Source: Deltaproteobacteria bacterium (GTDB lineage: Bacteria > Myxococcota > Myxococcia > Myxococcales > 40CM-4-68-19). Taken from it: DNA of 37,276 nucleotides. A program made the position numbers and the translations under genes. The stretch is from the NCBI GenBank assembly GCA_005879505.1, contig VBKQ01000140.1, positions 1-37,276 on the forward strand. The letters are read 5' to 3'. The notes below the pieces were generated by a model. It was not told where the DNA came from, searched no databases, and saw only the letters and a list, made by a program, of their open reading frames with translations. Every line of letters begins with the position of its first letter. Positions within the stretch are counted from its first letter, which is position 1. This document shows, piece after piece, positions 4,866 through 28,521 of the stretch.

Positions 4866-4928
4866 ATTGCGTTGGCGCGTTTACGCCGTTCCCCACGACT
4901 CGTCAAGCGGGGCGCTTTCGGCTAGTGG

Positions 4929-5420: not shown

Positions 5421-5559
5421 TTTGACCAAATCTTGTCCAAACAGGAGGGGACTTGCGGATCCCTGCGTGGCCTTCGGTGGACTTCGCGCTTGAGCTAACT
5501 ACTCGAGACGACTGAAAACATGAGGGACGACGCCCGTCTGCCGGTTGGGTGAAATCGTG

Positions 5560-5608
<49 letters not shown>

Positions 5609-15321: not shown

Positions 15322-16770
15322 TCACCGATCGTCGGCGTCCCGTCCGGCGGATGCGGGGATTGCGGGACTGACGGCCACCCGCGCTCCGCTCAACACCCAG
15401 GCCCGCTGACTGGGCGAGAAGCGCGGCGCCAGCAGCCCGTCGTTGATCTCGCGCGTCACGGCAAAGCGCTCGAAAACCGTCGGCGACAGGTAGAGGCGCG
15501 TGTTGTCGGCGAAGCCGTCGGTCGGCGTGTCGATGTCTCCCTCCGGAGCGGAAATGATGCCGTCGCCGTTTTGGTCGACGCGCGTCACCTCGACGGCGTA
15601 CGCGTCGAAGAGGCGCTGCTGGAGGTTCCTCTCCCAGGGCTCGAACGACGCGCGCCGCACGTACACATCGAGGAAGATCTCGTTCGCCAGCCCGCTGGGG
15701 ATGCCGCGCTGCCGGAATTCCCGCTGCGCATCGACGGTCCCGTCGAACTTGTCCGGATCGCGCGGCAGGTTGGGATCGTCTCCCAGGCGGCGAGGATCGT
15801 TCCTCACGCCGTTGGGCCCCGAGCCCGGCACGATGGACTGCAGCTTGCCGATCTCGCCGTCGGCGAAGGTGTCGGGCGCTGCGCCCAACCGGTCCGGGAA
15901 TCCGCCGGTGAAGGGCAGTTCATAGAGGGGATGAACCCAGTTGGTTCCCAGGTAATTGAATTCCCAATAAGCGTGGGCATCGGATTGCTGCAACGCATTG
16001 AACGCGCCCATGCTCAGGTAGATCGGGACCACGTTGGTCTGCGCGTCGGGGAAGTGATCGGACGCGCCGGGGAAGCGCGGCTTCTTTCCGTCGACCGTGA
16101 AGGTGTGTCCCGGGACGTTGTTGCCGGCGCCCATCCTGGCGAGGAGCGCGGCGTCGCGGGGCAGGATGGCGCCGAAGTGGGCGTGCCCGTCGGGACGCGC
16201 GACGGGGTCGATCGCCGGCACGGTGACGTCGTGAATCATCCAGCCTTCGTACCAGCCGCTCTCGTTGTTGATGACGAACAGGCCGGAGATGTCGGTGAAG
16301 ACGTCGATGAAGGCGCGCGGGTCGGTGGGATCGGTCGGGAGGCCGGGCTTCGGCTCGAGCACGACGCGGACCGCCCCCACCACCGGCAAGCCGCAGTTTC
16401 CGCCGGTGGCAGTCAGCTGAGCGGCATCGTTCACGCCCGGAATGCGGCTGGTGAAGACGTTGGGCTCGAAGCCGGTCGAGTCGAGGAGGTAGTACTGGAA
16501 GAGTTGGCTGGCGAGATCGGCCTCGGCGCGGGCCTGCACGGGCAGAACGCTGTGCGGCCGCTCGGCCAGGCGCACCAGCTGATCGCGCAGCGGCGCGGGT
16601 AGCGGCGCGATGTCGCCACGCGCGCCAACCGCCGCAGCGTCGGCGACTGCGTCGGGATTCGGATGGCAAGGGGCGGGAGGCTGCTCGGCCCGCGCCATGG
16701 TCGTCGCCATCAGCGGCAGGAGCAGCGCCGCCCGGAGGGGGAAGGAATACATAAGCCTCGATTCAATCAT
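15322..16770 (-). CDS. secreted hypothetical protein with EF-hand-like Ca-binding loop
   Basis: The ATG at 16770 is preceded by AAGGAG and overlaps the upstream haloperoxidase-like gene by 8 nt. It has a signal peptide (LLLPLMATTMARA) and a DQNGDGIIS loop. No family was recognised. Confidence 0.75.
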   Translation of the reverse strand: MIESRLMYSFPLRAALLLPLMATTMARAEQPPAPCHPNPDAVADAAAVGARGDIAPLPAPLRDQLVRLAERPHSVLPVQARAEADLASQLFQYYLLDSTGFEPNVFTSRIPGVNDAAQLTATGGNCGLPVVGAVRVVLEPKPGLPTDPTDPRAFIDVFTDISGLFVINNESGWYEGWMIHDVTVPAIDPVARPDGHAHFGAILPRDAALLARMGAGNNVPGHTFTVDGKKPRFPGASDHFPDAQTNVVPIYLSMGAFNALQQSDAHAYWEFNYLGTNWVHPLYELPFTGGFPDRLGAAPDTFADGEIGKLQSIVPGSGPNGVRNDPRRLGDDPNLPRDPDKFDGTVDAQREFRQRGIPSGLANEIFLDVYVRRASFEPWERNLQQRLFDAYAVEVTRVDQNGDGIISAPEGDIDTPTDGFADNTRLYLSPTVFERFAVTREINDGLLAPRFSPSQRAWVLSGARVAVSPAIPASAGRDADDR

Positions 16771-18070
16771 TTTCGTTCTCCTTGGGGGAATCCGAGTTGG
16801 ACACGACGAATTCGGCGACCTTCTCGCCCAGGCGATGGCCGGCGCTGAGGTCGAACCGGAAATGCTGGCCGGCGAAGATGCGGCTCAGCGTCGCCTCGCG
16901 GGCCGCGGCGGCGAACGACTCGAAGGAGCGCTGCGTGCCGGGCAGCACCTCGGAAGTGACGCTGAAGGCGAAATCGGCCTCCTCGAGAAAGCCCTCGAGC
17001 ACGGCCGCGGCGGCAGCGCTGATGACGGCGTGCGCGCCCGGATAGGAGGGATCGGGCGCGGTCCTGCCCGCCTGCGGGAGCCAGTTCGGGTCCGCGTCCG
17101 TCTCGGGGTTGCCGTCGGTATCCGCGGCGCGAATGGCGGTCACCGGCCGCCAGAAGGCATAGGTGTACTTCGCGTCGTAGAAGGCGATGACCGAGTCCGC
17201 GATCGCGACATCGAGCAGCGCGAACAGGCGCGCCGTTTCCGCCGTGGTCAGGCCGCGGCTCAATGCCGCCGTCTGCGCGATCTCGTTCCAGTAGTTCTGG
17301 ATGGCGCCGTTCCAGAATCGGCCGGTCAGCGCCTGGTCCGCGGACGCGGGGGAGCCGCTTGCGGTGCCGAGGGACTTGATCTCGTTGAGGGCGTCGGCGT
17401 ACGCGTCGCTCTCCAGCGCGGGAGGCGGGCCGGGCCGAAACTGGCTCGCGCGCTCCAGGGCGAACGGCTTGACGTGCGGCCAGCTCGTGAACTGCGGCTG
17501 GGAGGGGAAGTTCGGCGGAGTCGACTGATATGCGCCGGGGAGCGTTCCGAAGGTAAACTTGAGCGGCGGCGCCGCGGAGCCGTCGTCGGCACGCGCGGCG
17601 AGGACGCGGCCGGCGAAGTCCTGCCCGATGCGGACGCCCTCGGTCTTCGGCGCGCCGTCCGGAACCTGCGCCAGCGATTGCTGGAGCTGGGTGTCGAGCT
17701 GCGCCGCGAGCGATGGGTACAGCGCGACGAGGACGTCGTGCGCAGCCGCTGCAGCCGCGGCCTCCTGCGAGGCTTCCCGCGAAGACGCGCGAATCAGGCG
17801 CGGCGTCCGGTCAATGGAATGGACCGCGTCGCGGATCGCCAGATGGAGCATGGCGAAGGTGCGCGTCGGATGGATGGTCGCCGGCTGGGCGCCGGGCGTA
17901 CGGACGATGCGAAGCAGCGCCCGGTTCCACTCCACCACGAGGTTGGCCGGCTCCTGCGTCTCCGCAGTGGAAACCGCCGGACGTCCCTGCGCCAAGGCTC
18001 TGGCGGGAGGATTGCTGCACGCGGCAGCGAGCGCTGCAAAGTGAATCGCGATCAGCGACGTTCGATTCAT
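16763..18070 (-). CDS. vanadium-dependent haloperoxidase-like / PAP2-superfamily lipoprotein (paralog 1)
   Basis: Start MNRTSLIAIHFAALAAACS carries a lipobox. PAP2/V-HPO motifs are present: KYTYAFWRP (KxxxxxxRP), PSYPGAHAV (variant of PSGH) and SRIFAGQHFRFD (SRxxxxxHxxxD). The track ORF N-terminus is an over-extension. Confidence 0.85.
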   Translation of the reverse strand: MNRTSLIAIHFAALAAACSNPPARALAQGRPAVSTAETQEPANLVVEWNRALLRIVRTPGAQPATIHPTRTFAMLHLAIRDAVHSIDRTPRLIRASSREASQEAAAAAAAHDVLVALYPSLAAQLDTQLQQSLAQVPDGAPKTEGVRIGQDFAGRVLAARADDGSAAPPLKFTFGTLPGAYQSTPPNFPSQPQFTSWPHVKPFALERASQFRPGPPPALESDAYADALNEIKSLGTASGSPASADQALTGRFWNGAIQNYWNEIAQTAALSRGLTTAETARLFALLDVAIADSVIAFYDAKYTYAFWRPVTAIRAADTDGNPETDADPNWLPQAGRTAPDPSYPGAHAVISAAAAAVLEGFLEEADFAFSVTSEVLPGTQRSFESFAAAAREATLSRIFAGQHFRFDLSAGHRLGEKVAEFVVSNSDSPKENEND

Positions 18071-18123
18071 CGGGTACCTCGAGAGGGATTGAGTGGAGTC
18101 GAAGCGGAAATCCGCAAATGCGA

Positions 18124-18687
18124 TCAGGGCGGCCCCCCAGCCGGAGGAACCTGCGTTCGTGCCCAATCCTCCGAGGATCGGCCGGACCCGTCGCGGCGCG
18201 CGCGCGACGCGCCCGCTGCGGTCAGGAGATCGGCCACTTCGGAGCGCCCGAAGAGACGGGCGAACATCAGAGCGGTCTGGCCGACTCGGTTGGCCTGGTC
18301 GACGGCGCATGGCTGCGCGAGAAGCAGCTCGACCACGCGCTTCTGTCCCTGGAACGCCGCACCCATGAGGGCCGAGTTGCCGCGACCGTCGCCGGCACAG
18401 GCGTCGGCGCCCAGCCGCAGCAGCGTGCGCACCGCCTCGGCGTGACCGTGATACGCGGCGAGGATGAGGGCGGTGAAGCCGCGGGCGTCGCGCGTCTCCA
18501 CCGAGATGCCTGCGCCCACCAGGCCCTCGATCGCCGCCGCATCTCCTTCGCGAGCGGCGGCGAGCAGGTAACGCTCAGCATCCGCCCGGGGGACTTCTCG
18601 TCTCGAGAGGGTCGGCAGTGCTGCGAAGAGGACTCCACCCAGCAGCAGCGGGAACGCCAGCCAGGCCACCGATGCGCGCGACGTCAT
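18124..18687 (-). CDS. ankB: membrane-anchored ankyrin-repeat protein, AnkB-like
   Basis: It has an N-terminal TM or signal segment plus ankyrin repeats (GFTALILAAYHGHAEAVRTLLRLGAD; GNSALMGAAFQGQKRVVELLL; GQTALMFARLFGRSEVADLL). The ATG lies 2 nt after the catalase stop (TGAccATG), the same order as Pseudomonas katB-ankB. Confidence 0.85.
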   Translation of the reverse strand: MTSRASVAWLAFPLLLGGVLFAALPTLSRREVPRADAERYLLAAAREGDAAAIEGLVGAGISVETRDARGFTALILAAYHGHAEAVRTLLRLGADACAGDGRGNSALMGAAFQGQKRVVELLLAQPCAVDQANRVGQTALMFARLFGRSEVADLLTAAGASRARRDGSGRSSEDWARTQVPPAGGPP

Positions 18688-18689
18688 GG

Positions 18690-20177
18690 TCAGCGTACCG
18701 CGAGCCGCGCAGCGTCCGCGCTCACGCCTACCGCTTCGGCGAGCCGGCCGCCGTATTCCTCGTCGGCCTGCAGCATGAAGCCGACGATCCGCGTCTTGAC
18801 GGCCGCATTCTTCACCTGCCCGAGATCGCCGGCCAGGTTCTGCACCAGCCGCGCGCGCGCCGGCGCATCGAGCCGCCGATAAAATGCGCCTGCCTGCGAG
18901 AAGTCGTCGGTCTTTTCGATGCGCGCCTGCTGCGTGGTGCCGGAGAGCGGCGTGCGCGAATAGGCATAGGCCGACGTTTCGGCGACGGCGCCCGACACGC
19001 TCGGCTCGTAGTTGACGTCTGTTGCCGGACGCGCGCTGCTCATCGGGCCGGCCTGGTTGTTGTTGGCCACCGGCGAGCGGGGGTGATTGACCGGAAGCTG
19101 GAGATAGTTGGGCCCGACCCGGTAACGCTGCGTGTCGGTGTACGCGAAGAGCCGGCCCTGCAGGAGCTTGTCCTCCGAGGGCTCGATTCCAGGCGGCTGC
19201 ACCGCCGGACTGAACGCGGACTGCTCCGTGTCCTCGAAAAAGTTCGAGGGCGTGCGTTCCAGGGTGAAGCGGCCGAGGACCACCGAAGGAACCTGATCTT
19301 CCGGCCAGATCTTAGTGGGGTCGAGAGCGTCGAAGCTGAAGCGGTCAAGGTCCTTCGAGTCGACGATCTGCGCCGTCAGCTCCCAGCTCGGGTGATCGCC
19401 GCGCGCGATCGCGTCGTAGAGGTCCTTGGTGGCGTGCTGGAAGTCGGCGGCCTGAAGCTTCGCCGCCTCCTCCGGGGTGAGCGTCTTCACGCCCTGGAGC
19501 GAGAGATAGTGAAACTTCACGTAATGGACTACGCCCTTGGCGTTGACGAACTTGAACGCGTGCACGCCGTGGCCGTCCATCTGCCGGTAGTTCGCGGGGA
19601 CGCCTAGGTCAGAATAGAGCTGCGTGATCATGTGCGTCGATTCGGGCACGTGCGAAAAGAAGTCGAAGAACCGATTCGGGTCCTGCCGGTTGGTCACCGG
19701 CGACGGCTTGAGCGAGTGGACCATATCGGGGAACTTGATCGCGTCGCGGATGAAGAACACCGGCAGGTCGTTGCCGACCAGATCCCAGTTGCCCTCCTCG
19801 GTGTAGAACTTGAGGGCGAACCCGCGCGGATCGCGCAGCGTCTCGGGCGAATTGCCGCCGTGCACGACGGTGGAGAAGCGCACGAACATCGGCGTGCGCT
19901 TGCCCTTGGCGGAAAAGATCTTCGCGCGGGTGAGCGCGGAGAAGTCCGCCGCGCTCTCGAACGTGCCGTAGGCGCCAACGCCTCGGGCGTGCACCACTCT
20001 TTCTGGGATGCGCTCGCGATCGAAGCGCGCAAGCTTCTCGATCAGCGTGAAGTCCTCGAGCAATACGCTGCCGCGCGCGCCGGCAGTTTTGGAGTTCTGG
20101 TTGCTGCCGACCGGCGCGCCGGAGTCGGTGGTGAGAGGGGCAGTTGCTGCGAGGAGTGCGGCGAAGAGGAGACGCAT
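18690..20177 (-). CDS. katB: monofunctional haem catalase (small-subunit type) with putative signal peptide
   Basis: Catalase signatures are RERIPERVVHARG, FSTVVHGGNSPETLRDPRGFALKFYTEEGNWDLVGN and RLFAYTDTQRYRVG. The hydrophobic N-terminus MRLLFAALLAATAPL suggests export. Confidence 0.95.
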   Translation of the reverse strand: MRLLFAALLAATAPLTTDSGAPVGSNQNSKTAGARGSVLLEDFTLIEKLARFDRERIPERVVHARGVGAYGTFESAADFSALTRAKIFSAKGKRTPMFVRFSTVVHGGNSPETLRDPRGFALKFYTEEGNWDLVGNDLPVFFIRDAIKFPDMVHSLKPSPVTNRQDPNRFFDFFSHVPESTHMITQLYSDLGVPANYRQMDGHGVHAFKFVNAKGVVHYVKFHYLSLQGVKTLTPEEAAKLQAADFQHATKDLYDAIARGDHPSWELTAQIVDSKDLDRFSFDALDPTKIWPEDQVPSVVLGRFTLERTPSNFFEDTEQSAFSPAVQPPGIEPSEDKLLQGRLFAYTDTQRYRVGPNYLQLPVNHPRSPVANNNQAGPMSSARPATDVNYEPSVSGAVAETSAYAYSRTPLSGTTQQARIEKTDDFSQAGAFYRRLDAPARARLVQNLAGDLGQVKNAAVKTRIVGFMLQADEEYGGRLAEAVGVSADAARLAVR

Positions 20178-20222
20178 TTCTTGGTTCCTTTTCCGTGGGG
20201 CGTGACCGGAACGCGGGCCGAC

Positions 20223-20735
20223 TTATTCCTCGCGGGTGTCCGAACCGTTCCTGGGAATGCCGGCGGCGAACCAGTGCCCGTTGGCGGCGCTGAGGATGAG
20301 CAGCACTGGATTGTCGCAGGAGACCAGCACCGCTGGCGTGAGCGCGTCGTCGATGTGGAAATCGCCGTTGGCGGCGAGGGCCACGCCGGCGGCGCTCGTG
20401 CTGTGAGCGGTGGCCGTCGTCGCGGGTCCGCAGAAGACGGCTGCGAAGACGCGCTGCCCGCCGGTGGTGCCGATCGCATTGCCGGCGGTGAGCAGCAGGC
20501 CCCGCCCATCGACGGAGATGCGGCCGTCCGCTTGGACTTCCGCCGTAAGCGCGGTGATCTGCCAGGTAAAGCCGCCCGGCGAAACGCCGCGGACGACGTT
20601 GACGGCGGGGGTTCCCGTCGAGGTCACTCCGGCGACCGGATCGACTCCGATGCCGCCTTTGAAGGCGAGCATGGTGGAATCGGCCGAGGCCAGGCTGGGA
20701 AACAGGATGGCGAGGGCGAGGGCGAGCGTTTTCAT
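20223..20735 (-). CDS. secreted hypothetical protein (170 aa)
   Basis: It has a clear signal peptide (MKTLALALAILFPSLASA), GGAGG upstream of the ATG and two Cys residues. No family was recognised. Confidence 0.7.
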   Translation of the reverse strand: MKTLALALAILFPSLASADSTMLAFKGGIGVDPVAGVTSTGTPAVNVVRGVSPGGFTWQITALTAEVQADGRISVDGRGLLLTAGNAIGTTGGQRVFAAVFCGPATTATAHSTSAAGVALAANGDFHIDDALTPAVLVSCDNPVLLILSAANGHWFAAGIPRNGSDTREE

Positions 20736-20762
20736 GAGACCTCCAGCTTGGAACGCGGGTTG

Positions 20763-20817
20763 GACTCGTCCGGCCGGCGCACGGTTCGCGCGGGAATAAA
20801 ATCACCGCGCCGCGGTC
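20763..20817. promoter_or_regulatory. candidate divergent ECF-type promoter pair
   Basis: Plus strand: GGGAATAAA (20792-20800), then N17 after GGAAT, then GTC (20815-20817). Minus strand: CGAAC (20788-20784), N18, GTC (20765-20763), about 28 nt upstream of the 20735 start codon. Confidence 0.4.
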
Positions 20818-21348
20818 TACAGCTATCCCCGGGGCGCGGCGTCGAATGGCGGCCAGGATCTGCGGGGGCCGCGAAGAACGTGATGACTCGGTACCCGATT
20901 ACCTCGTGATCGAGACGGCGTTCACGGCCGTGCATTGGGCGATTGTCGGCCCGCTCACGGCACTTGCGTTCGCGCCTGCGCGTCGCGTGAAGGGCTGTAA
21001 TGTTCGGCGGCCTCGCGACCTCCACGTCTGCTCGTAGCGGTGGAGATGGATCACCTCGCGTTGCGCGTTTGGTAGCTGCGCGAGGGTCGCGCGCTCTGCC
21101 GAGGCCCGCTCGCGCGCGACGGAGCTGTCCGGCTCACCGGGAGCTGCAATATCGCCCGCCTCTTTCGCCCTCGGCTTCGTTCCTCCGCCGACTGCGCCCG
21201 GGATTCATCGGTCCGCACCCGGGCCACGATGGTGAACAAGCCAGTCGCGCAGTCCCATCCTGGTGCGCGGGGGGCCTCAGCGTTGTACGGCGCGCAGAGC
21301 GACCACCCGATCGCGTTCATCGCGTCACATGCGACTTGTCGCTGTGAA

Positions 21349-22146
21349 TCAGCCTTGGCGGCGCACCAGCTCGACGAACTTCTGCAGCTCGCCCTCGTTC
21401 AGATCGGAAACCGCCCAGTAATGCATCCCGTCCTTTGCCCAGCAGTACGCGCTGTAGCCGCGCCGGGAGAGGCGCTGCACCGGCTCGTCGCCGGCGCGCT
21501 TGCTCGGCCAGACGAAAAGGTTCACCACGTGCTGCTCGCGGCGGTAGACGAGCGCTGCCGCGGGCGTGTCCTCGACGTAATCGAGCCGACCGCCCACGAG
21601 CGGATAACCCTGGGCGGCCCAATCGGTCACCGACACCGAGTAGTCGAGCTTTCCCTGGAACCAGGGCTTGACAGTGTGCTGGTCGGAGGAAGCCACGTCC
21701 GTGAGATGGTTGGCGAGCAGCGACCGAACGTGCGCCGCGATCACCGCCTCGGCGACTGAAGCTTCGGACGGCGGGCGCCAGAGGCGCGGTCCGGCCACTA
21801 CCACCAGTGCGGCGGCTGCCGCAAAGGGGGCCAGCGCCGCCCACCTCCACGCGTGCCGGCGACGCCGCGCAACTCGCGGGAGCGCGGGGCTCGCTTCTTC
21901 GGAGTGTAGGGGAACGGAATGTCCTTCCGCGTGCAATGCATCGCGCAGCCGCGCGTCGAATTCCGGCGACGGCACATACCTGCTCAGGTTCGTACGTGCC
22001 GAGGCCTGCAGCTCGCGCAGTGCCCGCTCCTCGGCGCCGCAACCGGGGCAACGGGCGACGTGCCCCTCGATCTCCAGCGCTCCGCGCAGATCGAGCTCGT
22101 TGTCCACGTAGGCGTCGATCAGCCGCTTCGTCTCGGAGCAATTCAT
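21349..22146 (-). CDS. membrane-spanning anti-sigma factor with N-terminal ZAS zinc finger
   Basis: HVARCPGC is an HxxxCxxC motif. It has a central TM (WAALAPFAAAAALVVVAG) and a periplasmic C-terminal domain. It overlaps the sigma gene by 4 nt. Confidence 0.85.
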   Translation of the reverse strand: MNCSETKRLIDAYVDNELDLRGALEIEGHVARCPGCGAEERALRELQASARTNLSRYVPSPEFDARLRDALHAEGHSVPLHSEEASPALPRVARRRRHAWRWAALAPFAAAAALVVVAGPRLWRPPSEASVAEAVIAAHVRSLLANHLTDVASSDQHTVKPWFQGKLDYSVSVTDWAAQGYPLVGGRLDYVEDTPAAALVYRREQHVVNLFVWPSKRAGDEPVQRLSRRGYSAYCWAKDGMHYWAVSDLNEGELQKFVELVRRQG

Positions 22147-22682
22147 GACGCGCTCCCCGGCTGCTCGCGGCGGGCGACGGCGGCCTGCAGCTGCCGCCGC
22201 GCGCGCGAGAGCCGCGACATCACCGTGCCGATGGGAATGCGCGCCACGTCTGCGATCTCCTTATACGAAAGTCCTTCCATCTCACGCAGCACGAAGACCT
22301 CGCGGAACTCGACCGGCAGCGCCTCCACGGCCTCGTTGAGAAAGCGCTGCTGCGCCGAGCGTAGTACCAGCACCTCGGGCGTCTCAGAGGTGTGCCCATT
22401 CGAGGCCGGCTCGCTATGAAGCACCTCGTCGAACTCGGTGTCCAGCTCACGGGCGCGGTTCTGCTGCAAGAAGGAATAGGCACTGTTGCGAACGACGGTC
22501 AGCAGCCAGGCACGCGGATTGTCACCGCTGAATCCGTCAAAGAAGCGGAATGCGCGCACAATGGCCTCCTGCGTGACATCCTCGGCGTCGTGGTCGTTGC
22601 GCAAAAGCCAACGAGCGAGGTTGTACCCTGCCCTCATGTGGGGCAGCACCACTGCCTCGAACGAGTCGACTCGATGCGGCAA
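22143..22682 (-). CDS. ECF-family RNA polymerase sigma factor
   Basis: TTG start is preceded by GGAGGGG. Region 2 is DAEDVTQEAIVRAFRFFDGFSGDNPRAWLLTVVRNSAYSF. Region 4 is LPVEFREVFVLREMEGLSYKEIADVARIPIGTVMSRLSRARRQL. Confidence 0.9.
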   Translation of the reverse strand: MPHRVDSFEAVVLPHMRAGYNLARWLLRNDHDAEDVTQEAIVRAFRFFDGFSGDNPRAWLLTVVRNSAYSFLQQNRARELDTEFDEVLHSEPASNGHTSETPEVLVLRSAQQRFLNEAVEALPVEFREVFVLREMEGLSYKEIADVARIPIGTVMSRLSRARRQLQAAVARREQPGSAS

Positions 22683-22714
22683 TACCCCTCCGAGCGGAAA
22701 GGTCCAACCGCTGC

Positions 22715-22741
22715 GACCACGGCATCACTGACTTTATTCCC
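22715..22741 (-). promoter_or_regulatory. candidate autoregulatory ECF promoter upstream of the sigma gene
   Basis: The minus strand reads cGGGAATAAAGTCAGTGATGCCGTGGTCGCAG, that is GGAAT-N18-GTC, about 33 nt upstream of the TTG start. The same motif recurs at six other intergenic sites in the cluster. Confidence 0.55.
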
Positions 22742-22831
22742 GAGCCGCCGCAAGAGCGCAGCCAGTGCAGGGAGGGAAGAAGTTGGGATTGGCTTCGCAC
22801 CAACATTCTCCGATTTCGGCCTCGATGGTGC

Positions 22832-23215
22832 TCAGTCCTGCGTCGCCAGGCGCCGCTCCTCTTGCTCGTCGCGTACCTGGAGGGTGCCGAAGTAGCCAGT
22901 GGAGAGCGGCGCGAGGAGATCCTGGAAATGGCACACTTTGGGGCCGATGCCGATCGCGACGGAGTAGGTGTCCCCAGGATTCAGGACAGTGGACGACAGC
23001 TCGGCGCAGTCATTCGAGTAGATTTGGTGAGGTCGCGCATCGGCGTTGACGAATGCGAGCACGCTGCCCGTCTCGACCTCTAGAACGGGTGCGCTGACTC
23101 CGTGCTCGTCGAGCCGCTCGACCGGCTCTCGCCTCGCTTCGCGGCCGAAGCCCGCGCACCCGCAGAGCGCCGACAAGCACGCCAGCACTGCGATCTTCAT
23201 CGACTTGCGATCCAT
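22832..23215 (-). CDS. lipoprotein with cupredoxin-like fold features (hypothetical)
   Basis: MDRKSMKIAVLACLSALCGCAG carries a lipobox. The pattern VLEVETGSVLAFVNADARPHQ...LNPGDTYSV...GPKVCHFQD resembles single-domain cupredoxin-like proteins. The assignment is weak. Confidence 0.55.
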   Translation of the reverse strand: MDRKSMKIAVLACLSALCGCAGFGREARREPVERLDEHGVSAPVLEVETGSVLAFVNADARPHQIYSNDCAELSSTVLNPGDTYSVAIGIGPKVCHFQDLLAPLSTGYFGTLQVRDEQEERRLATQD

Positions 23216-23249
23216 GGCCCTTGTCCTTGGTCCGGTCTCAGCGACCGGA

Positions 23250-23303
23250 GACTCGGCCGCTGCACGGCATTCCGGTGGGAATGAGTTCGTGCCCGAGGCA
23301 GTC
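23250..23303. promoter_or_regulatory. palindromic ATTCC-GGTG-GGAAT element with flanking GTC boxes
   Basis: The palindrome spans 23269-23282. Plus side: GGAAT-N18-GTC (23301-23303). Minus side: GGAAT-N16-GTC (23252-23250), upstream of the 23215 start. Confidence 0.35.
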
Positions 23304-23676
23304 AATGCGCGCCCGTGATGGCGGCCGCGCGACTGTCTTCGGGCCGCTTGATCTCGACGAAAACGAGACGGTCGCCTCCCGTGACAGCGCGCGCTTCATC
23401 CGTGCTCGTCACGATTTTGGATACTGCAGTCGTGGATGAAATGGGGAGCGAGTAGCCAGCCAGGGTACGAGCTTCGTCTGTGCTGGAAATGGCACCCTCC
23501 ACCGGGGCCTTCACCGCGTTTGCGTGCGGCGGTGTGTTCGGCGCGAGCGCCCTAGCTTCGTCGCTGTTTGTCGGGAGCGGGCTGGCGCGAGTAACGCTCC
23601 CGGCTGCACCCGAAACCAAGAGTGCGACGCCGAGCGAGAGGCCGAGTTTCGAGAGTCTGTGATGGGTCTTCAGCAT
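23302..23676 (-). CDS. small secreted protein with three (S/T)(S/T)DEAR repeats
   Basis: Start MLKTHHRLSKLGLSLGVALLVSGAAG at 23676 is preceded by AAGGAGG. NSDEARAL, STDEARTL and STDEARAV are spaced about 28 aa apart. No family was recognised. Confidence 0.6.
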   Translation of the reverse strand: MLKTHHRLSKLGLSLGVALLVSGAAGSVTRASPLPTNSDEARALAPNTPPHANAVKAPVEGAISSTDEARTLAGYSLPISSTTAVSKIVTSTDEARAVTGGDRLVFVEIKRPEDSRAAAITGAH

Positions 23677-23697
23677 TTGAACCTCCTTGCTCATCCT

Positions 23698-23752
23698 GAC
23701 CGCTTCAGCCCTAGGTGCATTCCTCGGGGAATAAAGAGACGTGGGCGCAGTC
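23698..23752. promoter_or_regulatory. palindromic ATTCC-TCGG-GGAAT element with flanking GTC boxes
   Basis: The palindrome spans 23719-23732. Minus side: GGAAT-N18-GTC (23700-23698), just upstream of the SD and start of the repeat-protein gene. Plus side: GGGGAATAAAG-...-GTC (23750-23752, N17). Confidence 0.45.
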
Positions 23753-23778
23753 GCGGGTCAGCCTGACCGTGCCGCGTG

Positions 23779-24327
23779 CTACTCGGCCCGTGGTCTCGCG
23801 CGGTTGATGGACGACATCGTCAGGAGTAACTGTGCGGCGCGCTGCGCCTCTACTCCGAGGGCCATGGATAACGCCGTTGAACCGTCCGCGAGCGCCAGAT
23901 CCAGCGAGGCACCACTTTCGAGCAACAGATTGACGAGCTCGACGCAATCGAGCATGGCTGCGAGCATCAAGGCCGTGAGGCCTTCCGGGCCGGCGCCGTC
24001 TGGATCGGCGCCATGATCGAGGAGCAACGCGATCAGCCGGCGATCTGCGTCCATCACAGCGGTTGTGAGCGGGGTGAAGCCGAGCTCGCTGCGCGACTCG
24101 GGACTGGCGTTGCGCTCGAGCAGGAGGCGAGCAGCGTCGAATCGTCGGTTTGAGCAGGCGACATGGAGCAGGGTTTCACCGCGCTCGTTGCGCGCGTCGG
24201 CCGGGAGGCCATGATCGAGCACACTGCAGAGAGCGGGAGTGTCGCCGACGCGCGCGTGGAAGAATGCAGCGCGGGTGAGCGACATTGAGTGAAAGGTCGG
24301 AGCAGGGAATGGGCGCGGCTTCGTCAT
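23779..24327 (-). CDS. ankyrin-repeat protein (cytoplasmic type, no signal peptide)
   Basis: The ATG at 24327 is preceded by GGAGGA. Ankyrin repeats are GETLLHVACSNRRFDAARLLLERNASP, GFTPLTTAVMDADRRLIALLLDHGADP and GLTALMLAAMLDCVELVNLLLESGAS. Confidence 0.8.
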   Translation of the reverse strand: MTKPRPFPAPTFHSMSLTRAAFFHARVGDTPALCSVLDHGLPADARNERGETLLHVACSNRRFDAARLLLERNASPESRSELGFTPLTTAVMDADRRLIALLLDHGADPDGAGPEGLTALMLAAMLDCVELVNLLLESGASLDLALADGSTALSMALGVEAQRAAQLLLTMSSINRARPRAE

Positions 24328-24355
24328 CGGGCTTCCTCCACGCCCCGCCGTCCCC

Positions 24356-24380
24356 GACTCTCGCGCCGCGCGTATATTCC
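24356..24380 (-). promoter_or_regulatory. candidate ECF-type promoter upstream of the ankyrin gene
   Basis: The minus strand reads GGAATATACGCGCGGCGCGAGAGTCGGGG, that is GGAAT-N17-GTC, about 29 nt upstream of the ATG at 24327. Confidence 0.45.
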
Positions 24381-24397
24381 CATCGGCGTCCGCTGCG

Positions 24398-24841
24398 CTA
24401 TTGCCCGCTGAGGCCCTTCTGCTGCGGTGTGCCGCTGTTGCGGACGAAATCGGCGGTGCCCTGCGAGAGGGCCAGGGTCTTCGCCAGCCTGGCAAGGGCC
24501 GCATCAGCGCTGTCGAGAGAAGCGCGCGCTTCGTCGATGAAGAATCCGTCGCTATGCAGGGTCGCCACGGCAACGACGCCCTCGGGCGCGCGAACGATGT
24601 CGAGCGTGACTTCGAGATCCTCGTGATACGGCGGATGGGCAACGATGGTGAACCCCTCCCCGGCCAACGCCCGGACGAAGGCCGCATGCAGCGCAGAATC
24701 GTGGCTCTCGTCGGCGACGCTCAGGTTGCGGCTGGAAAGCTCGCTGCGCGTGAGCGGTTTGTCTGCGGCCCGCGAGCGCCATTGGCCGACCGTGCACGCC
24801 CAGAACAGGGCCCCGAGAATGCTTGCTGTGAGGACCCTCAC
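24398..24841 (-). CDS. hypothetical lipoprotein / secreted protein (147 aa)
   Basis: The N-terminus MRVLTASILGALFWACT has a hydrophobic leader followed by Cys. It starts 6 nt after the upstream stop. No family was recognised. Confidence 0.6.
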   Translation of the reverse strand: MRVLTASILGALFWACTVGQWRSRAADKPLTRSELSSRNLSVADESHDSALHAAFVRALAGEGFTIVAHPPYHEDLEVTLDIVRAPEGVVAVATLHSDGFFIDEARASLDSADAALARLAKTLALSQGTADFVRNSGTPQQKGLSGQ

Positions 24842-24846
24842 CGCGG

Positions 24847-26181
24847 TCAGTCCCGCTCGGGATCGTCGTCTTCGCGCTCAGTCAGGAAGTGATCGAGCAC
24901 GAGATCGGCGACCTGCAGGCCAAGGACCCGACCTGCGCTGAGATCGAATCGGAAATGCTGTCCGGCGAAGATCCGACTCAGGGTGGCTTCCTGGGCGGCC
25001 GCGGCAAACGACTGGAACGAGCGTTCTGCCCCGGGCATCACTTCGGACCTGACGCTGAACTTGAAGGGCTCGGCTCCAAGGACGTCCGTGAGCACTGCAG
25101 CTGCGGCAGCGCTGATGACCGCGTGCGCGCCAGGGTACGAAGGATCCGGCGCCGTCTTGCCGACCTCCGGAAGCCAGTTCGGATCGGCATCGGTCTTCAG
25201 GTTGCCATCCGTGTCCGCGGCCCGGATCGCCGTCACCGGCCGCCAGAAGTTGTAAGTGTACTTCGCGTCGTAGAAGGCGATGACGCTGTCCGCGAGTGCG
25301 AGGTTCAGCAGCGCGAAGAGGCGCGCGTTCTGCGCCGTGGTCAACGTATCGACGACGGACGTGGTCTGTGCGATCTCGTTCCAGTAATTCTGGACGGCGC
25401 CGTTCCAGAATCGGCCGGTCAGTGCCTGGTCCGCAGTTGCTGTGCTGCCGGCTGCGCTTCCGAGCGATTTCAAGTCATTGAAGGCATCGCTGTAAGCGGC
25501 GCTGGTGAGCCTGGGCGGCGACCCGGGACGGAACTGGCTGGCGCTCTCGACCGCAAATGGTCTGACGTGGGACCAGTGCGTGAACTGAGGCTGAGGCGGA
25601 AAGTTCGGCGGCGTCGACTGATATGCGCCTGCCATCGTGCCGAAGACATATGTCGGCGGCTGCGCTGCAGACCCATCATCGGCTCGCAGCATCACGAGAT
25701 GCCGAGCAACTTCGGCTCCGATGGCAACCCCTTCCTCCTTCCCCGCTCCATCGGGAACCTCCGTGAGTGATTGCTCGAATTGCGCATCGATCTGGGCGCT
25801 CAACGCCGGATACAACGCCACGAGCACGCCATGCGCGGCGGCCGCGGCGGCCGCTTGTTGCGACGCACCTCGGGGCGCGTGGCGGACACGGATCAGGTAG
25901 GGGGCGTGTGTCCGGTCGATGGCGTTGACGGCATCGTAGATCGCGGCATGAAGCATCGCGAAGCCGCGCGTCGCATGGACCGTCGCCGGCTGCGCCCCTG
26001 GCGTGCGGACGATCGATAGCAGAATCCTGTTCCATTGGACCACCGGGTCGACTGACGGAGCAGGCGATGCAGACGAAACGAGCCGGGTTGTCTCGGTGCG
26101 AGCGGTTTCGCCGGTGGAAGGATTGCCGCAGGCGGCGGCAAGAAGGCAGAGGCTCATCGGTAGAACCAACGCGCTCGTCAT
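24847..26181 (-). CDS. vanadium-dependent haloperoxidase-like / PAP2-superfamily lipoprotein (paralog 2)
   Basis: Start MTSALVLPMSLCLLAAACG carries a lipobox. It is collinear with paralog 1 along its whole length and has identical motifs: KYTYNFWRP, PSYPGAHAV and SRIFAGQHFRFD. Confidence 0.85.
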   Translation of the reverse strand: MTSALVLPMSLCLLAAACGNPSTGETARTETTRLVSSASPAPSVDPVVQWNRILLSIVRTPGAQPATVHATRGFAMLHAAIYDAVNAIDRTHAPYLIRVRHAPRGASQQAAAAAAAHGVLVALYPALSAQIDAQFEQSLTEVPDGAGKEEGVAIGAEVARHLVMLRADDGSAAQPPTYVFGTMAGAYQSTPPNFPPQPQFTHWSHVRPFAVESASQFRPGSPPRLTSAAYSDAFNDLKSLGSAAGSTATADQALTGRFWNGAVQNYWNEIAQTTSVVDTLTTAQNARLFALLNLALADSVIAFYDAKYTYNFWRPVTAIRAADTDGNLKTDADPNWLPEVGKTAPDPSYPGAHAVISAAAAAVLTDVLGAEPFKFSVRSEVMPGAERSFQSFAAAAQEATLSRIFAGQHFRFDLSAGRVLGLQVADLVLDHFLTEREDDDPERD

Positions 26182-26224
26182 CGGATACCTCGATGGGGGG
26201 AACCGGGACGGCATCGGGCGAGAT

Positions 26225-26280
26225 GACCGGCTCGGTGGAGCGGCTATTCCCCGGGGAATGAAATGACGCCTGGGCAAGTC
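26225..26280. promoter_or_regulatory. perfect palindrome ATTCCCCGGGGAAT with symmetric GTC boxes: candidate bidirectional ECF promoter
   Basis: The palindrome spans 26246-26259. Plus side: GGAAT-N18-GTC (26278-26280), toward the NOX-like gene. Minus side: GGAAT-N18-GTC (26227-26225), toward haloperoxidase-like paralog 2 (start 26181). Confidence 0.55.
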
Positions 26281-26457
26281 GTAATGTGCGAGGTGTCCGA
26301 TGTCGATCCGCGGCGTCGTCACTACACGTCACGTATTCCGCCACGGCAGTCTCATCGTACGTGAGTTCGGCCCGCTCGCATTCCTGCGCTGCTGCCTCGC
26401 TATCGTGTTGCGCCGCAGTACGACGTTTCTCGCCTGTGTTACGCCGCTTGCTCCTCG

Positions 26458-27831
26458 GTGATGCGCTCACCATTTCTGGCAGTGTCTGCGCAGCGAATGA
26501 AGGTCGCCAGATGGCTCCTGCTCCTGACGCACATCATCGTGGTCTGCGGATTTTGGCTCTGGAACCACATCCGTTCTCCCGGTGGAAGCCTGCTCTCGAA
26601 GGGCGCTCCCGAAGTTCTTCTCGCCACCGGCCGGCTCGCAGCCGTCCTGGCGGTCAGCGGAATTCTCCTCCAGTTGATGTTGATCGGCCGGGTCAAGTGG
26701 TTGGAACGGACCTTTGGTCTCGACAAGCTGATTCGGGTGCATCACAAGAATGGCCTGCTCGTGCTTGGCGCGCTCAGCGCCCACCCGATCCTGGTCACCG
26801 CGGGGCACGCGATGAAGGAGAGGGCTTCCTTCTGGGTCCAGCTGAAGGACTTCTTGGCCAACTGGGATGCCGTGCCTCTCGCCGCTTCCGGCTGGCTCCT
26901 CCTCTTGATACTCGGCGCGGCTTCCCTCGCGCCGGTGCGCCGCCATATGCGGTACGAGCATTGGTACGCGCTCCACTTGACTGCGTACGCCGCGATCGCT
27001 CTCGCTTTCTTTCACCAGACGAGATTGGGAAGGGACTTCACCAGGAATCAGGTCCTCACCGCATACTGGTTTGGATTGCATGCGTTCGTAGCGGTCAATT
27101 TGATTTTCTTCCGCCTCCTCAGACCCACGTTGGTTTTCTGGCGGCATCGATTCACCATAGAACGGCTCGAACGGGAGACGGATGACGTTACCTCGGTCGT
27201 GATCCGCGGGCGGGCCCTCATGGACTTCCGCATTCAGGCGGGGCAGTTCATGTTCGTCCGCTTCTGGATGAAAGGATTCCGGTGGCAATCCCACCCATTC
27301 TCGATGTCCCGGCAGCCGGACGGCTCCGAGATCCGCCTCAGCATCAAGAGCATCGGCGACTTCACGGCGGCCATCCCGAGGCTGGCACCGGGAACCCCGG
27401 TGCTCATCGACGGTCCACACGGGGTTTTCACCGCGAGATACTGCCAGCGAGAAAAGGTCTTGATGGTGGCCGCGGGAATCGGCATCACGCCCATTCGCTC
27501 GCTGGCGGAGGAGCTCGCGGCGGATGGTAGGGATGTACTTGTCCTTTACGGCAATCGCAACGAGGCGGCGATCGTATTTCACAAGGAACTCGATGAGCTC
27601 GAAGCGACCTGCCCCAACTTGCGAGTGATCCACATCCTCAGCCACGACCCATCGTGGACGGGCGAAAAGGGCCATATCGACGCCGAAAAGATCTCGCGCT
27701 TTGCTTCAGATGCCGCCGAACGAGACGTCTTTCTGTGCGGCCCGCCCATCATGATGAAGGACGTGCTGAAAGCGCTGGCCGCGATGGGGGTACCCCGCTC
27801 GACAATCCACTGGGAACGCTTTTCGCTCTGA
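26458..27831 (+). CDS. NOX/FRE-type transmembrane flavocytochrome (ferric-reductase TM domain + FAD + NAD(P)H domains)
   Basis: Six predicted TM segments carry two His pairs: HHKNGLLVLGALSAH (spacing 14) and HLTAYAAIALAFFH (spacing 13). FAD motif HPFS, NAD(P)H motif GIGITP and CGPP are present. The start is uncertain (GTG 26458, ATG 26461 or ATG 26497). Confidence 0.9.
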   Translation: MMRSPFLAVSAQRMKVARWLLLLTHIIVVCGFWLWNHIRSPGGSLLSKGAPEVLLATGRLAAVLAVSGILLQLMLIGRVKWLERTFGLDKLIRVHHKNGLLVLGALSAHPILVTAGHAMKERASFWVQLKDFLANWDAVPLAASGWLLLLILGAASLAPVRRHMRYEHWYALHLTAYAAIALAFFHQTRLGRDFTRNQVLTAYWFGLHAFVAVNLIFFRLLRPTLVFWRHRFTIERLERETDDVTSVVIRGRALMDFRIQAGQFMFVRFWMKGFRWQSHPFSMSRQPDGSEIRLSIKSIGDFTAAIPRLAPGTPVLIDGPHGVFTARYCQREKVLMVAAGIGITPIRSLAEELAADGRDVLVLYGNRNEAAIVFHKELDELEATCPNLRVIHILSHDPSWTGEKGHIDAEKISRFASDAAERDVFLCGPPIMMKDVLKALAAMGVPRSTIHWERFSL

Positions 27832-27954
27832 CGCAACGGTGCCGAAGGTCGTGGGTCCGATCTCCACGCCAGCCTCTTCGCTTCCCTTAGCGACGAGCAA
27901 CGTCACGGGCTGCAGGCCTCGGCCAACGGCTTCGCGATCGGCGGCTAGCGCCAG

Positions 27955-27980
27955 GGAATAGGGTGGAGGTCAATCGGGTC
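27955..27980 (+). promoter_or_regulatory. candidate ECF-type promoter upstream of the receiver gene
   Basis: aGGGAATAGGGTGGAGGTCAATCGGGTCGTTG gives GGAAT-N18-GTC. If it is used, the receiver most likely starts at ATG 28165 behind a leader of about 180 nt. Confidence 0.4.
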
Positions 27981-27981
27981 G

Positions 27982-28521
27982 TTGCCAGCGATGGAGGAGT
28001 TCAAAATGATCGATGGCCCCGTGGCTCGGCTCAAGTTTCGATCGGACATTGCCGCCCGAATTCCGGCTGATGAACCCTATTGCGGAGCCTACTCAACGAC
28101 AGCCATCGATCGAGTACCTGCCGACCCCGCGCCGAACTGGGAGACAGGACGCGGCGCCGGCGCGATGCTTTGTGAAATCCTCGTGGTCGAGGACGACGAA
28201 GATCTTCGCGAGTCGCTTGCGCAAGCACTCAGCGCCAATGGGCATATCGTGCGCGCGACGGAGCACGGCGCGAAGGCGCTCGAGCTGCTGTCCCGCGGGT
28301 GCCGGCCAGGACTGATTCTCCTCGACATCATGATGCCAGTCATGGACGGTCTCAGATTCCTTGAGTTGAAGAATGCTGACCCGCTGCTCGCGTCTATACC
28401 GGTGGTCATGATGAGTGCCACCGAGCGGCGGCGACATTCCGGAGCCGCCGATCTGGTCGCCAAGCCCATGGACCTGGACGATTTGGAGCGCGTGATAAAG
28501 CAGCACTACGAATCGCCCTGA
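27982..28521 (+). CDS. single-domain response regulator (CheY-like receiver), no output domain
   Basis: The receiver core is EILVVEDDEDLRESL...LILLDIMMPVMDGLRFL...IPVVMMSA...AKPMDLDDL. The track ORF starts at TTG 27982. The receiver itself begins at MLCEILVVEDD (ATG 28165), which may be the true start. Confidence 0.8.
   Translation: MPAMEEFKMIDGPVARLKFRSDIAARIPADEPYCGAYSTTAIDRVPADPAPNWETGRGAGAMLCEILVVEDDEDLRESLAQALSANGHIVRATEHGAKALELLSRGCRPGLILLDIMMPVMDGLRFLELKNADPLLASIPVVMMSATERRRHSGAADLVAKPMDLDDLERVIKQHYESP

Follow-up and report, generated by a model that had tools for sequence, protein, structure and literature searches.

We examined if the GGAAT…GTC motif that recurs between the genes of a catalase and haloperoxidase cluster is a promoter read by the ECF sigma factor encoded within the same cluster, and which units such a sigma factor might control.

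Occurrence and conservation of the motif

In the window (the whole 37,276-nt stretch of DNA analysed) there were 14 exact matches to GGAAT-N16-18-GTC, compared to 2.92 ± 1.40 expected from 100 dinucleotide-preserving shuffles of the window, none of which reached 14. Eleven of the 14 fell within the intergenic DNA of the cluster (1,357 nt, within 20204-27980; Fisher p = 5e-14). The other three, at 3471(-), 14611(+) and 15714(+), lacked the extended consensus given below and lay in probable coding DNA; their number equals the chance expectation. Every site listed by the original prediction was found at its coordinates and strand, but four exact sites had been omitted, 20229(-), 20793(+), 23278(+) and 23728(+). 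By sequence and gene calls, start codons lay 19-43 nt downstream of the GTC box across the cluster units, and sigma-70-type promoters in the cluster did not exceed chance. The sigma factor itself is encoded behind one of the matches:

22715 to 22740, minus strand: putative autoregulatory promoter of the sigma/anti-sigma operon, GGAATAAAGTCAGTGATGCCGTGGTC
22143 to 22682, minus strand: ECF sigma factor gene, 179 aa (Pfam Sigma70_r2 and Sigma70_r4_2)
21349 to 22146, minus strand: anti-sigma factor gene, 265 aa (Pfam zf-HC2, 1.5e-9)

The TTG start of the sigma gene is 32 nt past the end of the GTC box. The top NCBIfam model for the sigma was PRK12533 (212.7 bits, below the cut-off of 248), and the anti-sigma combines HxxxCxxC with a single membrane helix (hydropathy peak 1.83) and a periplasmic domain.

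Among orthologues of the sigma, and among homologues with identities as low as about 42%, GGAATAAA-N15-GTC was retained 45-75 nt before the gene in several phyla (well over 100 loci). Because the box stays while the spacers vary freely, this represents a phylogenetic footprint, that of an ECF promoter under autoregulation. The consensus of 50 distinct sigma-upstream sites from homologues of <70% identity was cGGGAATAAAa-N13-c(A/G)GTCTt, where positions beyond the search pattern (G-1, A+5 to A+7, and the T after GTC) carried 1.2-1.8 bits and the spacer none. An independent weight matrix, trained solely on sigma-upstream sites of homologues of <70% identity, gave 18.4 bits for 22715..22740(-) and five window matches >12 bits versus 0.2 expected, all five inside the cluster. 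In diverged Myxococcales loci (sigma 84-95% identical), each target promoter likewise stands before its own gene, with substituted spacers. Judged from these sequence comparisons, GGAAT…GTC is genuine and conserved as a promoter signal for the cluster's alternative sigma factor, and the promoter type is already known from other bacteria.

Target units and their putative promoters

The putative promoters and the units behind them were as follows:

16763 to 20177, minus strand: target unit with Pfam matches to catalase (18690-20177), ankyrin AnkB-like (18124-18687) and PAP2/vanadium-haloperoxidase-like protein 1 (16763-18310), all on this strand
20204 to 20229, minus strand: promoter of the catalase-ankB-haloperoxidase 1 unit, GGAATAAGTCGGCCCGCGTTCCGGTC, exact match
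20763 to 20788, minus strand: half-module in degenerate form (CGAAC-N18-GTC), 27 nt ahead of the gene for a 170-aa secreted protein (20223-20735)
23250 to 23273, minus strand: promoter of the cupredoxin-like lipoprotein gene (22832-23215), exact match with N16 spacer
23698 to 23723, minus strand: promoter of the STDEAR-repeat secreted protein gene (23302-23676), exact match
24356 to 24380, minus strand: promoter of the ankyrin-repeat gene (23779-24327), exact match
26225 to 26250, minus strand: promoter of haloperoxidase-like 2 (24847-26181; Pfam PAP2 and VCPO_N), exact match
26255 to 26280, plus strand: promoter of a 53-aa ORF (26300-26461) and the NOX-like gene (26461-27831), exact match
27955 to 27980, plus strand: promoter of the stand-alone receiver-domain gene (28006-28521; Pfam Response_reg), exact match

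The catalase ATG lies 26 nt past the end of the GTC box, and this promoter is conserved before the catalase gene in two related loci. The original prediction had instead placed the secreted-protein and catalase genes together behind the CGAAC variant; the variant is present but weak, and the exact, conserved catalase site had gone unlisted. With its two mismatches the variant falls short of significance as a match to the motif (NGAAN-N16-18-GTC was found 99 times in the window), whereas its distance from the strong site 20793(+) is exactly the canonical 4-nt gap (p about 0.003), and we regard it as a weak candidate promoter of the 170-aa secreted-protein gene.

The STDEAR-repeat ATG is 21 nt past the end of its GTC box, and this promoter was invariant in 14 distinct related sequences. 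Conservation was also found for the promoters of the cupredoxin-like lipoprotein gene (with N17, six loci), the ankyrin-repeat gene (spacer variable, five loci), haloperoxidase-like 2 (four loci), which shares one unit with a 147-aa gene downstream (24398-24841), and the receiver gene (three loci). The promoter of the NOX-like gene (ferric-reductase/FAD/NAD by Pfam) stands back-to-back with 26250(-) across a 4-nt gap, and the pair is conserved in three loci.

Known promoter classes and the sigma factor that probably reads the boxes

The Sinorhizobium meliloti RpoE1 and RpoE4 promoters, with start sites mapped via 5'-RACE or RNA-seq (PMC6180224, PMC3511301), are GGAATAAA-N15-GTC and GGAATAAG-N15-GTC (PMC6180224). 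These ECF26 promoters are identical to those of the window in boxes and spacing (-35 GGAATA(A), -10 (C)GTC, and 18 nt between GGAAT and GTC), and the S. meliloti systems resemble the window in their autoregulated sigma/anti-sigma operon and small, local regulons; a catalase gene is present in ECF26s1 neighbourhoods (PMC7826278). The proteins are less alike: the window sigma is only 34% identical to RpoE6, the single S. meliloti ECF26 sigma compared, and the RpoE6 anti-sigma has no detectable similarity to that of the window. As targets, S. meliloti has genes for sulfite oxidation, whereas the window has catalase, haloperoxidase and NOX-like genes.

The ECF Hub entries, to the extent that PMC13492112 quotes them, give GGAATA/CGTTTT as the ECF26 consensus and GAATAA/GGTCT as predicted boxes for ECF207 (Cupriavidus metallidurans RpoO/RsoA), and as quoted the latter fits the cross-phylum consensus (GGGAATAAA … GGTCT) better than the ECF26 -10 CGTTTT does. 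Sigma homologues in Cupriavidus, Burkholderia and Ralstonia are 44-54% identical to the window sigma and carry GGAATA(G/A)A-N-GGTA (in Burkholderia AGTT), accompanied by a divergent partner box. Anti-sigma identity is 35-50%, i.e., 35% over the full length in Cupriavidus, whose homologue is not necessarily RpoO, and 47-50% over the C-terminal domain of the anti-sigmas adjoining the Burkholderia and Ralstonia sigmas. ECF207 is an essentially uncharacterised group; in C. metallidurans, no start site was detectable for predicted ECF207 and ECF26 promoters under the conditions tested, and for rpoO neither a start site nor autoregulation was detected (PMC13492112). ECF26 and ECF207 are the closest described promoter classes on the consensuses quoted there, a classing by promoter boxes that leaves the ECF Hub group of the sigma unassigned.

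The original prediction had pointed to the SigR/SigH (ECF12) class. This was a reasonable lead, since Mycobacterium tuberculosis SigH is the nearest solved structure to the window sigma (E = 2e-24). Both systems have the -35 core GGAAT, a spacing of about 18 nt, an anti-sigma with zinc HxxxCxxC and an oxidative-stress theme. The class is argued against by the membrane-anchored zinc anti-sigma with its periplasmic domain (RsrA/RshA are soluble) and by the NCBIfam scores (TIGR02947 SigH_actino, 97.6 versus a cut-off of 251); the -10 box here is GTC, not GTT, and thioredoxin-type or thiol-homeostasis targets were absent from the cluster.

It is highly probable that the GGAAT(A/G)-N16-18-GTC boxes are -35/-10 elements read by RNA polymerase with the ECF sigma of 22143-22682 or a close paralogue of the same specificity; comparative and literature support upheld the central proposal of ECF promoters, including an autoregulatory one, in a local regulon. 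We consider it unlikely that the boxes, as real ECF promoters, are mainly read by a paralogous ECF sigma whose gene lies in another part of the genome, with the adjacent sigma controlling its own operon only. S. meliloti RpoE1, RpoE4 and RpoE6 are documented to overlap in specificity (PMC6180224; PMC10880074), and one MAG (DATBZA01) has two sigma/anti-sigma loci whose sigmas share 94% and 86% identity with the window sigma, both behind GGAATAAA-N15-GTC, which makes it ambiguous which sigma reads any one promoter; however, the targets cluster tightly around the window sigma gene, this linkage persists through many rearrangements, and the window sigma's own promoter bears identical boxes.

Back-to-back layout and orphan halves

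The motifs were mostly arranged as divergent back-to-back pairs, ATTCC-N4-GGAAT, and such a compact bidirectional promoter layout is unusual. Around S. meliloti rpoE6 no back-to-back -35 pairs were seen, and we know of no description of them for S. meliloti ECF26 sigmas. Three halves had no gene to drive within the window:

20793 to 20817, plus strand: best family-consensus match in the whole window, cGGGAATAAAATCACCGCGCCGCGGTCTac, 31.6 bits
23278 to 23303, plus strand: orphan back-to-back partner, its -10 GTC overlapping the convergent STDEAR-repeat gene at the stop codon
23728 to 23752, plus strand: back-to-back partner directed into the ankyrin gene (23779-24327) at its 3' end, 16.1 bits

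Site 20793(+) is convergent toward the anti-sigma/sigma operon with no credible downstream gene, and 20818-21348 yielded no plausible ORF, no Rfam match and no significant fold; the related locus L103 carries the identical module followed by different DNA. In another locus (L104) a near-identical copy of the 23278(+) promoter stands before a YceI-like gene followed by a cupredoxin gene, and on this comparison 23278(+) is a promoter remnant from a YceI-like gene that is absent here. Site 23728(+) is a candidate antisense promoter into the ankyrin gene; its -35 box, which reads TTTATTCC on the opposite strand, was invariant in 14/14 related sequences and its -10 GTC retained in 9/14.

The inverted repeat TTTATTCC-N4-GGAATAAA could be imagined not as paired -35 boxes but as an operator bound by a dimeric regulator, given four near-palindromic sites with a fixed 4-nt gap and a TTTATTCC half that never varies ahead of the STDEAR-type promoter, including where the antisense -10 box is lost. 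We find this very improbable: the sigma, catalase, ankyrin and receiver genes have unpaired single boxes, each half has GTC at N16-18 (chance about 0.055 per site, a hand estimate from base composition), in other phyla the halves are 14-15 or 20-26 nt apart with each before a gene, and the cluster encodes no DNA-binding regulator besides the sigma. That the matches arose by chance, or as copies of a dispersed repeat devoid of promoter function, is hardly credible, for while the three out-of-cluster matches look random and two-mismatch variants are common, the shuffles and the intergenic enrichment contradict chance, the boxes are conserved across phyla, and the sites are not repeat copies since their similarity is confined to the boxes, with no repeat family joining them outside.

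Paired -35 boxes of ECF promoters may be set beside the symmetric bidirectional promoters of the housekeeping sigma that Warman et al. reportedly described in 2021, with overlapping -10 elements and starts about 18 bp apart. In both, a short symmetric segment would be transcribed both ways and orphan directions would yield antisense or non-coding transcripts; in the window, by contrast, it is the -35 boxes that abut, their centres 9 bp from each other, the predicted starts are about 70 bp apart, and both halves putatively depend on the ECF sigma, not the housekeeping sigma.

What is shown here is that the boxes exist, exceed chance, occupy these positions and are conserved in evolution, and that boxes and spacing are identical to those of mapped ECF26 promoters; which sigma reads them, what signal induces it and how the orphan halves act we infer, by analogy with other ECF systems, as follows. 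The co-transcribed zinc-binding anti-sigma would hold the sigma at the membrane until a periplasmic or oxidative signal released it, whereupon the sigma would amplify its own operon via the 22740 promoter and turn on at least eight separate units, each with its own promoter: catalase-ankB-haloperoxidase 1; probably the secreted 170-aa protein; the cupredoxin-like lipoprotein; the STDEAR-repeat protein; the ankyrin protein; haloperoxidase 2 with the 147-aa gene; the 53-aa ORF with NOX-like; and the receiver protein. With genes on both flanks, a pair would act as a true bidirectional promoter (NOX / haloperoxidase 2), and a rearrangement that removed one flank would leave an orphan half (20793+, 23278+, 23728+) from which sigma-dependent antisense or convergent transcripts may arise. 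The set under control would be catalase, haloperoxidase and NADPH-oxidase-like genes in an uncultured soil myxobacterium.

The GGAAT…GTC motif and its place in the cluster

An exact search of the window for GGAAT-N16-18-GTC, read as the -35 and -10 boxes of promoters for the cluster-encoded ECF sigma, gave 14 matches compared with 2.92 ± 1.40 expected from dinucleotide-preserving shuffles, none of which reached 14. Eleven of these fell between 20204 and 27980, all inside 1,357 nt of intergenic DNA (Fisher p = 5e-14), with spacers of N18 (seven sites), N17 (three) and N16 (one); GTC formed the -10 box at each of the 11, and was followed by T at only two. The cluster sites have the two-part form general to ECF sigma-dependent promoters, in which a GGAA(C/T)-like -35 and a (C)GT(C)-like -10 are held about 16-18 nt apart. 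The three matches outside the cluster (3471-, 14611+ and 15714+) were within probable coding DNA, lacked the flanking consensus, and equal the number predicted by chance. All sites listed in the original prediction were found at their coordinates, but four exact ones had been overlooked: 20229-20204(-), which directly precedes the catalase gene, and 20793(+), 23278(+) and 23728(+), each designated by motif start. The listed CGAAC variant, 20788-20763(-), was not significant alone (there were 99 NGAAN-N16-18-GTC matches), but it is separated from 20793(+) by exactly 4 nt and is plausibly a weak promoter. The genes and sites are as follows.

18690-20177, minus: catalase gene; site 20229-20204(-)
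20223-20735, minus: secreted 170-aa protein gene; CGAAC variant 20788-20763(-)
20793, plus: exact site
21349-22146, minus: anti-sigma gene
22143-22682, minus: ECF sigma gene; site 22740-22715(-)
22832-23215, minus: cupredoxin-like lipoprotein gene; site 23273-23250(-)
23278, plus: exact site
23302-23676, minus: STDEAR-repeat gene; site 23723-23698(-)
23728, plus: exact site
23779-24327, minus: ankyrin gene; site 24380-24356(-)
24847-26181, minus: haloperoxidase 2 gene; site 26250-26225(-)
26461-27831, plus: NOX-like gene; site 26255-26280(+)
28006-28521, plus: receiver gene; site 27955-27980(+)

Pfam and NCBIfam bore out the gene calls made earlier, supporting the catalase, an AnkB-like ankyrin, two PAP2/VCPO-like haloperoxidase-type proteins, the ECF sigma, a zf-HC2 anti-sigma, a second ankyrin protein, a ferric-reductase/FAD/NAD (NOX-like) protein and a receiver-only protein; the same family search gave no match for several small secreted proteins. 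The anti-sigma (265 aa) has a zf-HC2 match, a hydrophobic membrane helix spanning roughly residues 100-122, and a C-terminal (periplasmic) domain of 140 aa; it scored 46 against a cut-off of 100 with NCBIfam NF052375 ('antisigma'), and a comparison with solved structures gave no match. A 53-aa ORF at 26300-26461(+) has a good ribosome-binding site; it overlaps the start codon of the NOX-like gene (TGATG), and this overlap suggests translational coupling. Among the loci compared (L numbers, each encoding an identical or related sigma), gene calls include this ORF on the near-identical contigs covering the region (L001-L005), and a 53-aa gene is called on L006 too; the ORF had no family match. 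Outside the cluster there was a full-length cobalamin riboswitch at 4671-4866(-) (91.9 bits) and a borderline tRNA match at 5539-5601(+) (29.1 bits).

Taking starts from gene calls on near-identical contigs, the start codon of each gene lies 19-43 nt downstream of its GTC box. If transcription begins 9-10 nt past GTC, as in the mapped Sinorhizobium meliloti promoters considered below, the leaders would be 10-34 nt, each long enough for a ribosome-binding site. Directly 3' of the lipoprotein promoter -10 box, in the predicted 5' leader, is a 7-bp inverted repeat (TCCGGTC-N5-GACCGGA, 23226-23248). Scanning the cluster for sigma-70-type promoters revealed none beyond chance; the window is about 67% GC, and in DNA this rich in GC both that scan and one for intrinsic terminators were uninformative. 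The 76 nt that follow the anti-sigma stop codon are conserved; folded as a candidate terminator, they did not give a significant result.

Conservation of the boxes and the promoter class

We compared 160 loci encoding sigma relatives 40-99% identical (from species-representative genomes and metagenomes), plus six contigs with the identical sigma. Several soil metagenomes contain contigs with sigmas 99-100% identical; among named records the nearest are 'Myxococcales bacterium' MAGs. The motif upstream of sigma was present in most of these 166 loci, with invariant boxes and variable spacers, in keeping with the autoregulation originally proposed. In nearly all close Myxococcales relatives the sigma gene is preceded, at a distance of 45-75 nt, by GGAATAAA-N15-GTC, which occupies that position in most homologues from Acidobacteriota, Verrucomicrobiota, Planctomycetota, Chloroflexota, Eremiobacterota and Proteobacteria too. 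Fifty distinct sigma-upstream sites, from homologues of less than 70% identity, gave the consensus cGGGAATAAAa-N13-c(A/G)GTCTt, in which the spacer held no information and positions that had not been searched for (G before GGAAT, AAA after it, T after GTC) held 1.2-1.8 bits. At the homologous sites generally the -10 box was GTC nearly throughout, even with GT[CT] permitted in the search. A matrix built from these 50 foreign sites alone made five matches above 12 bits in the window, where 0.2 were expected, and all five were in the cluster. MAG DATBZA01 (SMAG_U7607) has two paralogous sigma/anti-sigma loci (L007 and L011, 94% and 86% identical to the window sigma), each with GGAATAAA-N15-GTC in front, so that cross-recognition of promoters between the paralogues is likely.

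In Myxococcales loci with sigma 84-95% identical, the catalase, cupredoxin-like lipoprotein, STDEAR, ankyrin, haloperoxidase 2, NOX-like and receiver genes each retained their own box pair as the spacer mutated. The window sites resemble one another in their boxes only, and copies of a mobile repeat, which would have more than the boxes in common, were rejected on that ground. Because boxes are kept while spacers mutate, and nothing outside the boxes is shared, the sites are selected elements. On this comparative evidence, with the sigma-upstream box conserved and the targets retaining theirs, the motif is a real feature, and its main reading, as promoters of the cluster ECF sigma, was evidently right.

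The promoter class appears to be one already known, of the ECF26/ECF207 type. The start sites of the S. meliloti RpoE1 and RpoE4 promoters have been mapped (GGAATAAATCCATAGCCCTCCGTGTC and GGAATAAGCGAGGCAGCTCGCTCGTC), and the authors give a cross-species ECF26 consensus of -35 GGAATA and -10 GT (PMC6180224); the boxes are the same as those in the window, and GGAAT-to-GTC spacing is 18 nt in both. The cross-phylum form, cGGGAATAAAa … (A/G)GTCTt, contains the ECF26 consensus of Staron 2009 and Casas-Pastor 2021 (-35 GGAATA, -10 GT(C/T); compared with Table 1 and text of PMC6180224). The ECF Hub consensus quoted in a 2026 C. metallidurans paper is GGAATA/CGTTTT for ECF26 and GAATAA/GGTCT for ECF207, the RpoO group (PMC13492112). 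The predicted ECF207 boxes are present in the cross-phylum consensus as GAATAAA and (G/A)GTCT, and the ECF207 -10 box fits that consensus better than the ECF26 one does.

Neighbourhoods and protein relationships were also compared. A catalase gene is among the ECF26s1 neighbourhoods (PMC7826278); there it accompanies cytochrome b561, whereas in the window the catalase has its own promoter and no cytochrome b561 was found, the NOX-like gene supplying a di-haem membrane domain of the ferric-reductase type instead. The catalase and sigma genes are not neighbours in most related loci. The window sigma is 34% identical to S. meliloti RpoE6 (pSymA), below what its phmmer score to Mycobacterium tuberculosis SigH implies, and the window anti-sigma had no detectable similarity to EcfR6, the RpoE6 anti-sigma. 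The clear relatives are Burkholderia, Cupriavidus and Ralstonia sigma/anti-sigma pairs, with sigmas 44-54% identical and anti-sigmas 35% identical over full length (Cupriavidus) or 47-50% over the C-terminal domain (Burkholderia and Ralstonia); these pairs carry GGAATA(G/A)A-N-GGTA (AGTT in Burkholderia) with a divergent partner box. A Cupriavidus campinensis homologue, possibly the equivalent of RpoO, is 50% identical to the window sigma. A full-text literature search for GGAATAAA with ECF, or for vanadium haloperoxidase with ECF, found nothing relevant.

The SigR/SigH class named in the original prediction did not hold. The anti-sigmas of that class (ECF12; RsrA/RshA) are soluble cytoplasmic zinc proteins of about 100 aa without a membrane helix, whereas the one here is 265 aa with a membrane helix and periplasmic domain; ECF12 promoters have a GTT -10 and a thioredoxin/thiol-homeostasis regulon, whereas the window has GTC and catalase, haloperoxidase-like, NOX-like and ankyrin targets. 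Family membership was tried with TIGR02947 and rejected (97.6 bits for the window sigma against a cut-off of 251.55). The nearest solved structure to the window sigma is M. tuberculosis SigH, so the two classes plausibly read GGAA alike.

Back-to-back modules and orphan halves

Eight of the 12 boxes (CGAAC variant included) form four back-to-back pairs with a 4-nt gap: 20788/20793, 23273/23278, 23723/23728 and 26250/26255. The last, between haloperoxidase 2 and the NOX-like unit and kept in L104, L106 and L108, appears to be a true bidirectional promoter. The site 23278(+) is nearly identical to the L104 promoter that heads a YceI-like gene followed by a cupredoxin gene; as these genes of the L104 arrangement are missing from the window, 23278(+) is an orphan promoter, and its -10 box shares bases with the stop codon of the STDEAR gene, which is convergent to it. 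The site 23728(+) aims into the ankyrin gene 3' end, and its -35 is invariant in 14 distinct related sequences with GTC kept in nine. What is conserved there would be either an antisense promoter or an upstream element belonging to the STDEAR promoter. The site 20793(+) is the top match to the family consensus in the whole window (31.6 bits) and faces the anti-sigma/sigma operon; the approximately 530 nt downstream of it (20818-21348) yielded no credible ORF, Rfam family or significant fold. This module recurs in L103 with different downstream DNA: L103 homology ends near 20860, L002 homology starts at 21161, and related loci show no conservation past about 20860. The region 20818-21348 may be a rearrangement hot spot, or possibly a metagenome assembly joint.

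Divergent pairs are a trait of this ECF family. Among 61 dereplicated divergent modules from several phyla, the distance between the two GGAAT boxes clustered at 2-5 nt (17 modules), 14-15 nt (5) and 20-26 nt (26), with peaks at 4 and 25, and gaps of 6-13 and 16-19 nt were nearly missing, the lone exception being 11. The Rayleigh statistic was maximal at a period of 10-10.5 bp (R = 0.62; the modules are phylogenetically non-independent, and the nominal p-value is not a probability). By arithmetic, the two -35 boxes of a pair in the 4-nt class would have their centres about 9 bp apart, with the partner box upstream at about -42, which is the position of class II activators contacting sigma region 4; the other classes would place it near -52 and -63, where it would face the same side of the helix. 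Two holoenzymes might bind one module co-operatively or exclusively, which would couple both directions. Orphan halves, with 23728(+) against ankyrin mRNA and 20793(+) against the anti-sigma/sigma operon as candidates, would then drive antisense or convergent transcription that depends on sigma, or else act as decoys that bind it. That the back-to-back -35 layout is a functional architecture of the family, and not a by-product of compact gene packing, we regard as rather unlikely.

A cassette mosaic and the putative regulon of this lineage

Within the Myxococcales lineage the gene order is mosaic, built from single-gene cassettes that each have a promoter of their own. Compared with 16763-28521, loci with sigma 92-99% identical (L093, L095, L096, L098, L099 and L103-L108) contain differing subsets and orders of the cassettes: haloperoxidase 2, secreted 170-aa, 147-aa, ankyrin, STDEAR, YceI-like, cupredoxin, NOX-like, receiver, and catalase-ankB-haloperoxidase 1. 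Each carries its own GGAAT…GTC box; deletion joints adjoin promoter modules, and the breakpoints of cassette shuffling among strains coincide with them. In L103 (5995-6040, against window 20459-20760) most of the secreted 170-aa gene is deleted and its 3' part is fused to the back-to-back module. In other phyla (L019-L082, L151-L165) the divergent side of the sigma promoter usually has a gene for a TAT-signal metallophosphoesterase or for a DoxX-like membrane protein, and on the Ralstonia OE1-1 megaplasmid (L170) the divergent genes encode a metallophosphoesterase and a coxII-like cupredoxin. The core regulon may accordingly have differed in its ancestral state from that of the window, and the catalase/haloperoxidase/NOX-like content is therefore particular to this Myxococcales lineage.

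Less ordinary are the high promoter density (one for every gene), the tightly packed back-to-back modules, which appear to be helically phased, the putative regulon content, and the orphan halves, from which sigma-dependent antisense or convergent transcripts should arise. The motif gives a sequence-level definition of a putative regulon in an uncultured soil myxobacterium, tying a catalase-AnkB pair, two vanadium-haloperoxidase-like proteins, a NOX-like flavocytochrome and several uncharacterised secreted proteins to one membrane-signalled sigma, and co-regulation of peroxide-making, -using and -removing enzymes becomes a testable hypothesis. With it comes an orthogonal sigma/promoter set that includes graded natural variants of the promoter. 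Should the helically phased compact modules prove functional, they would amount to a simple natural way for an alternative sigma to exert coupled bidirectional and antisense control.
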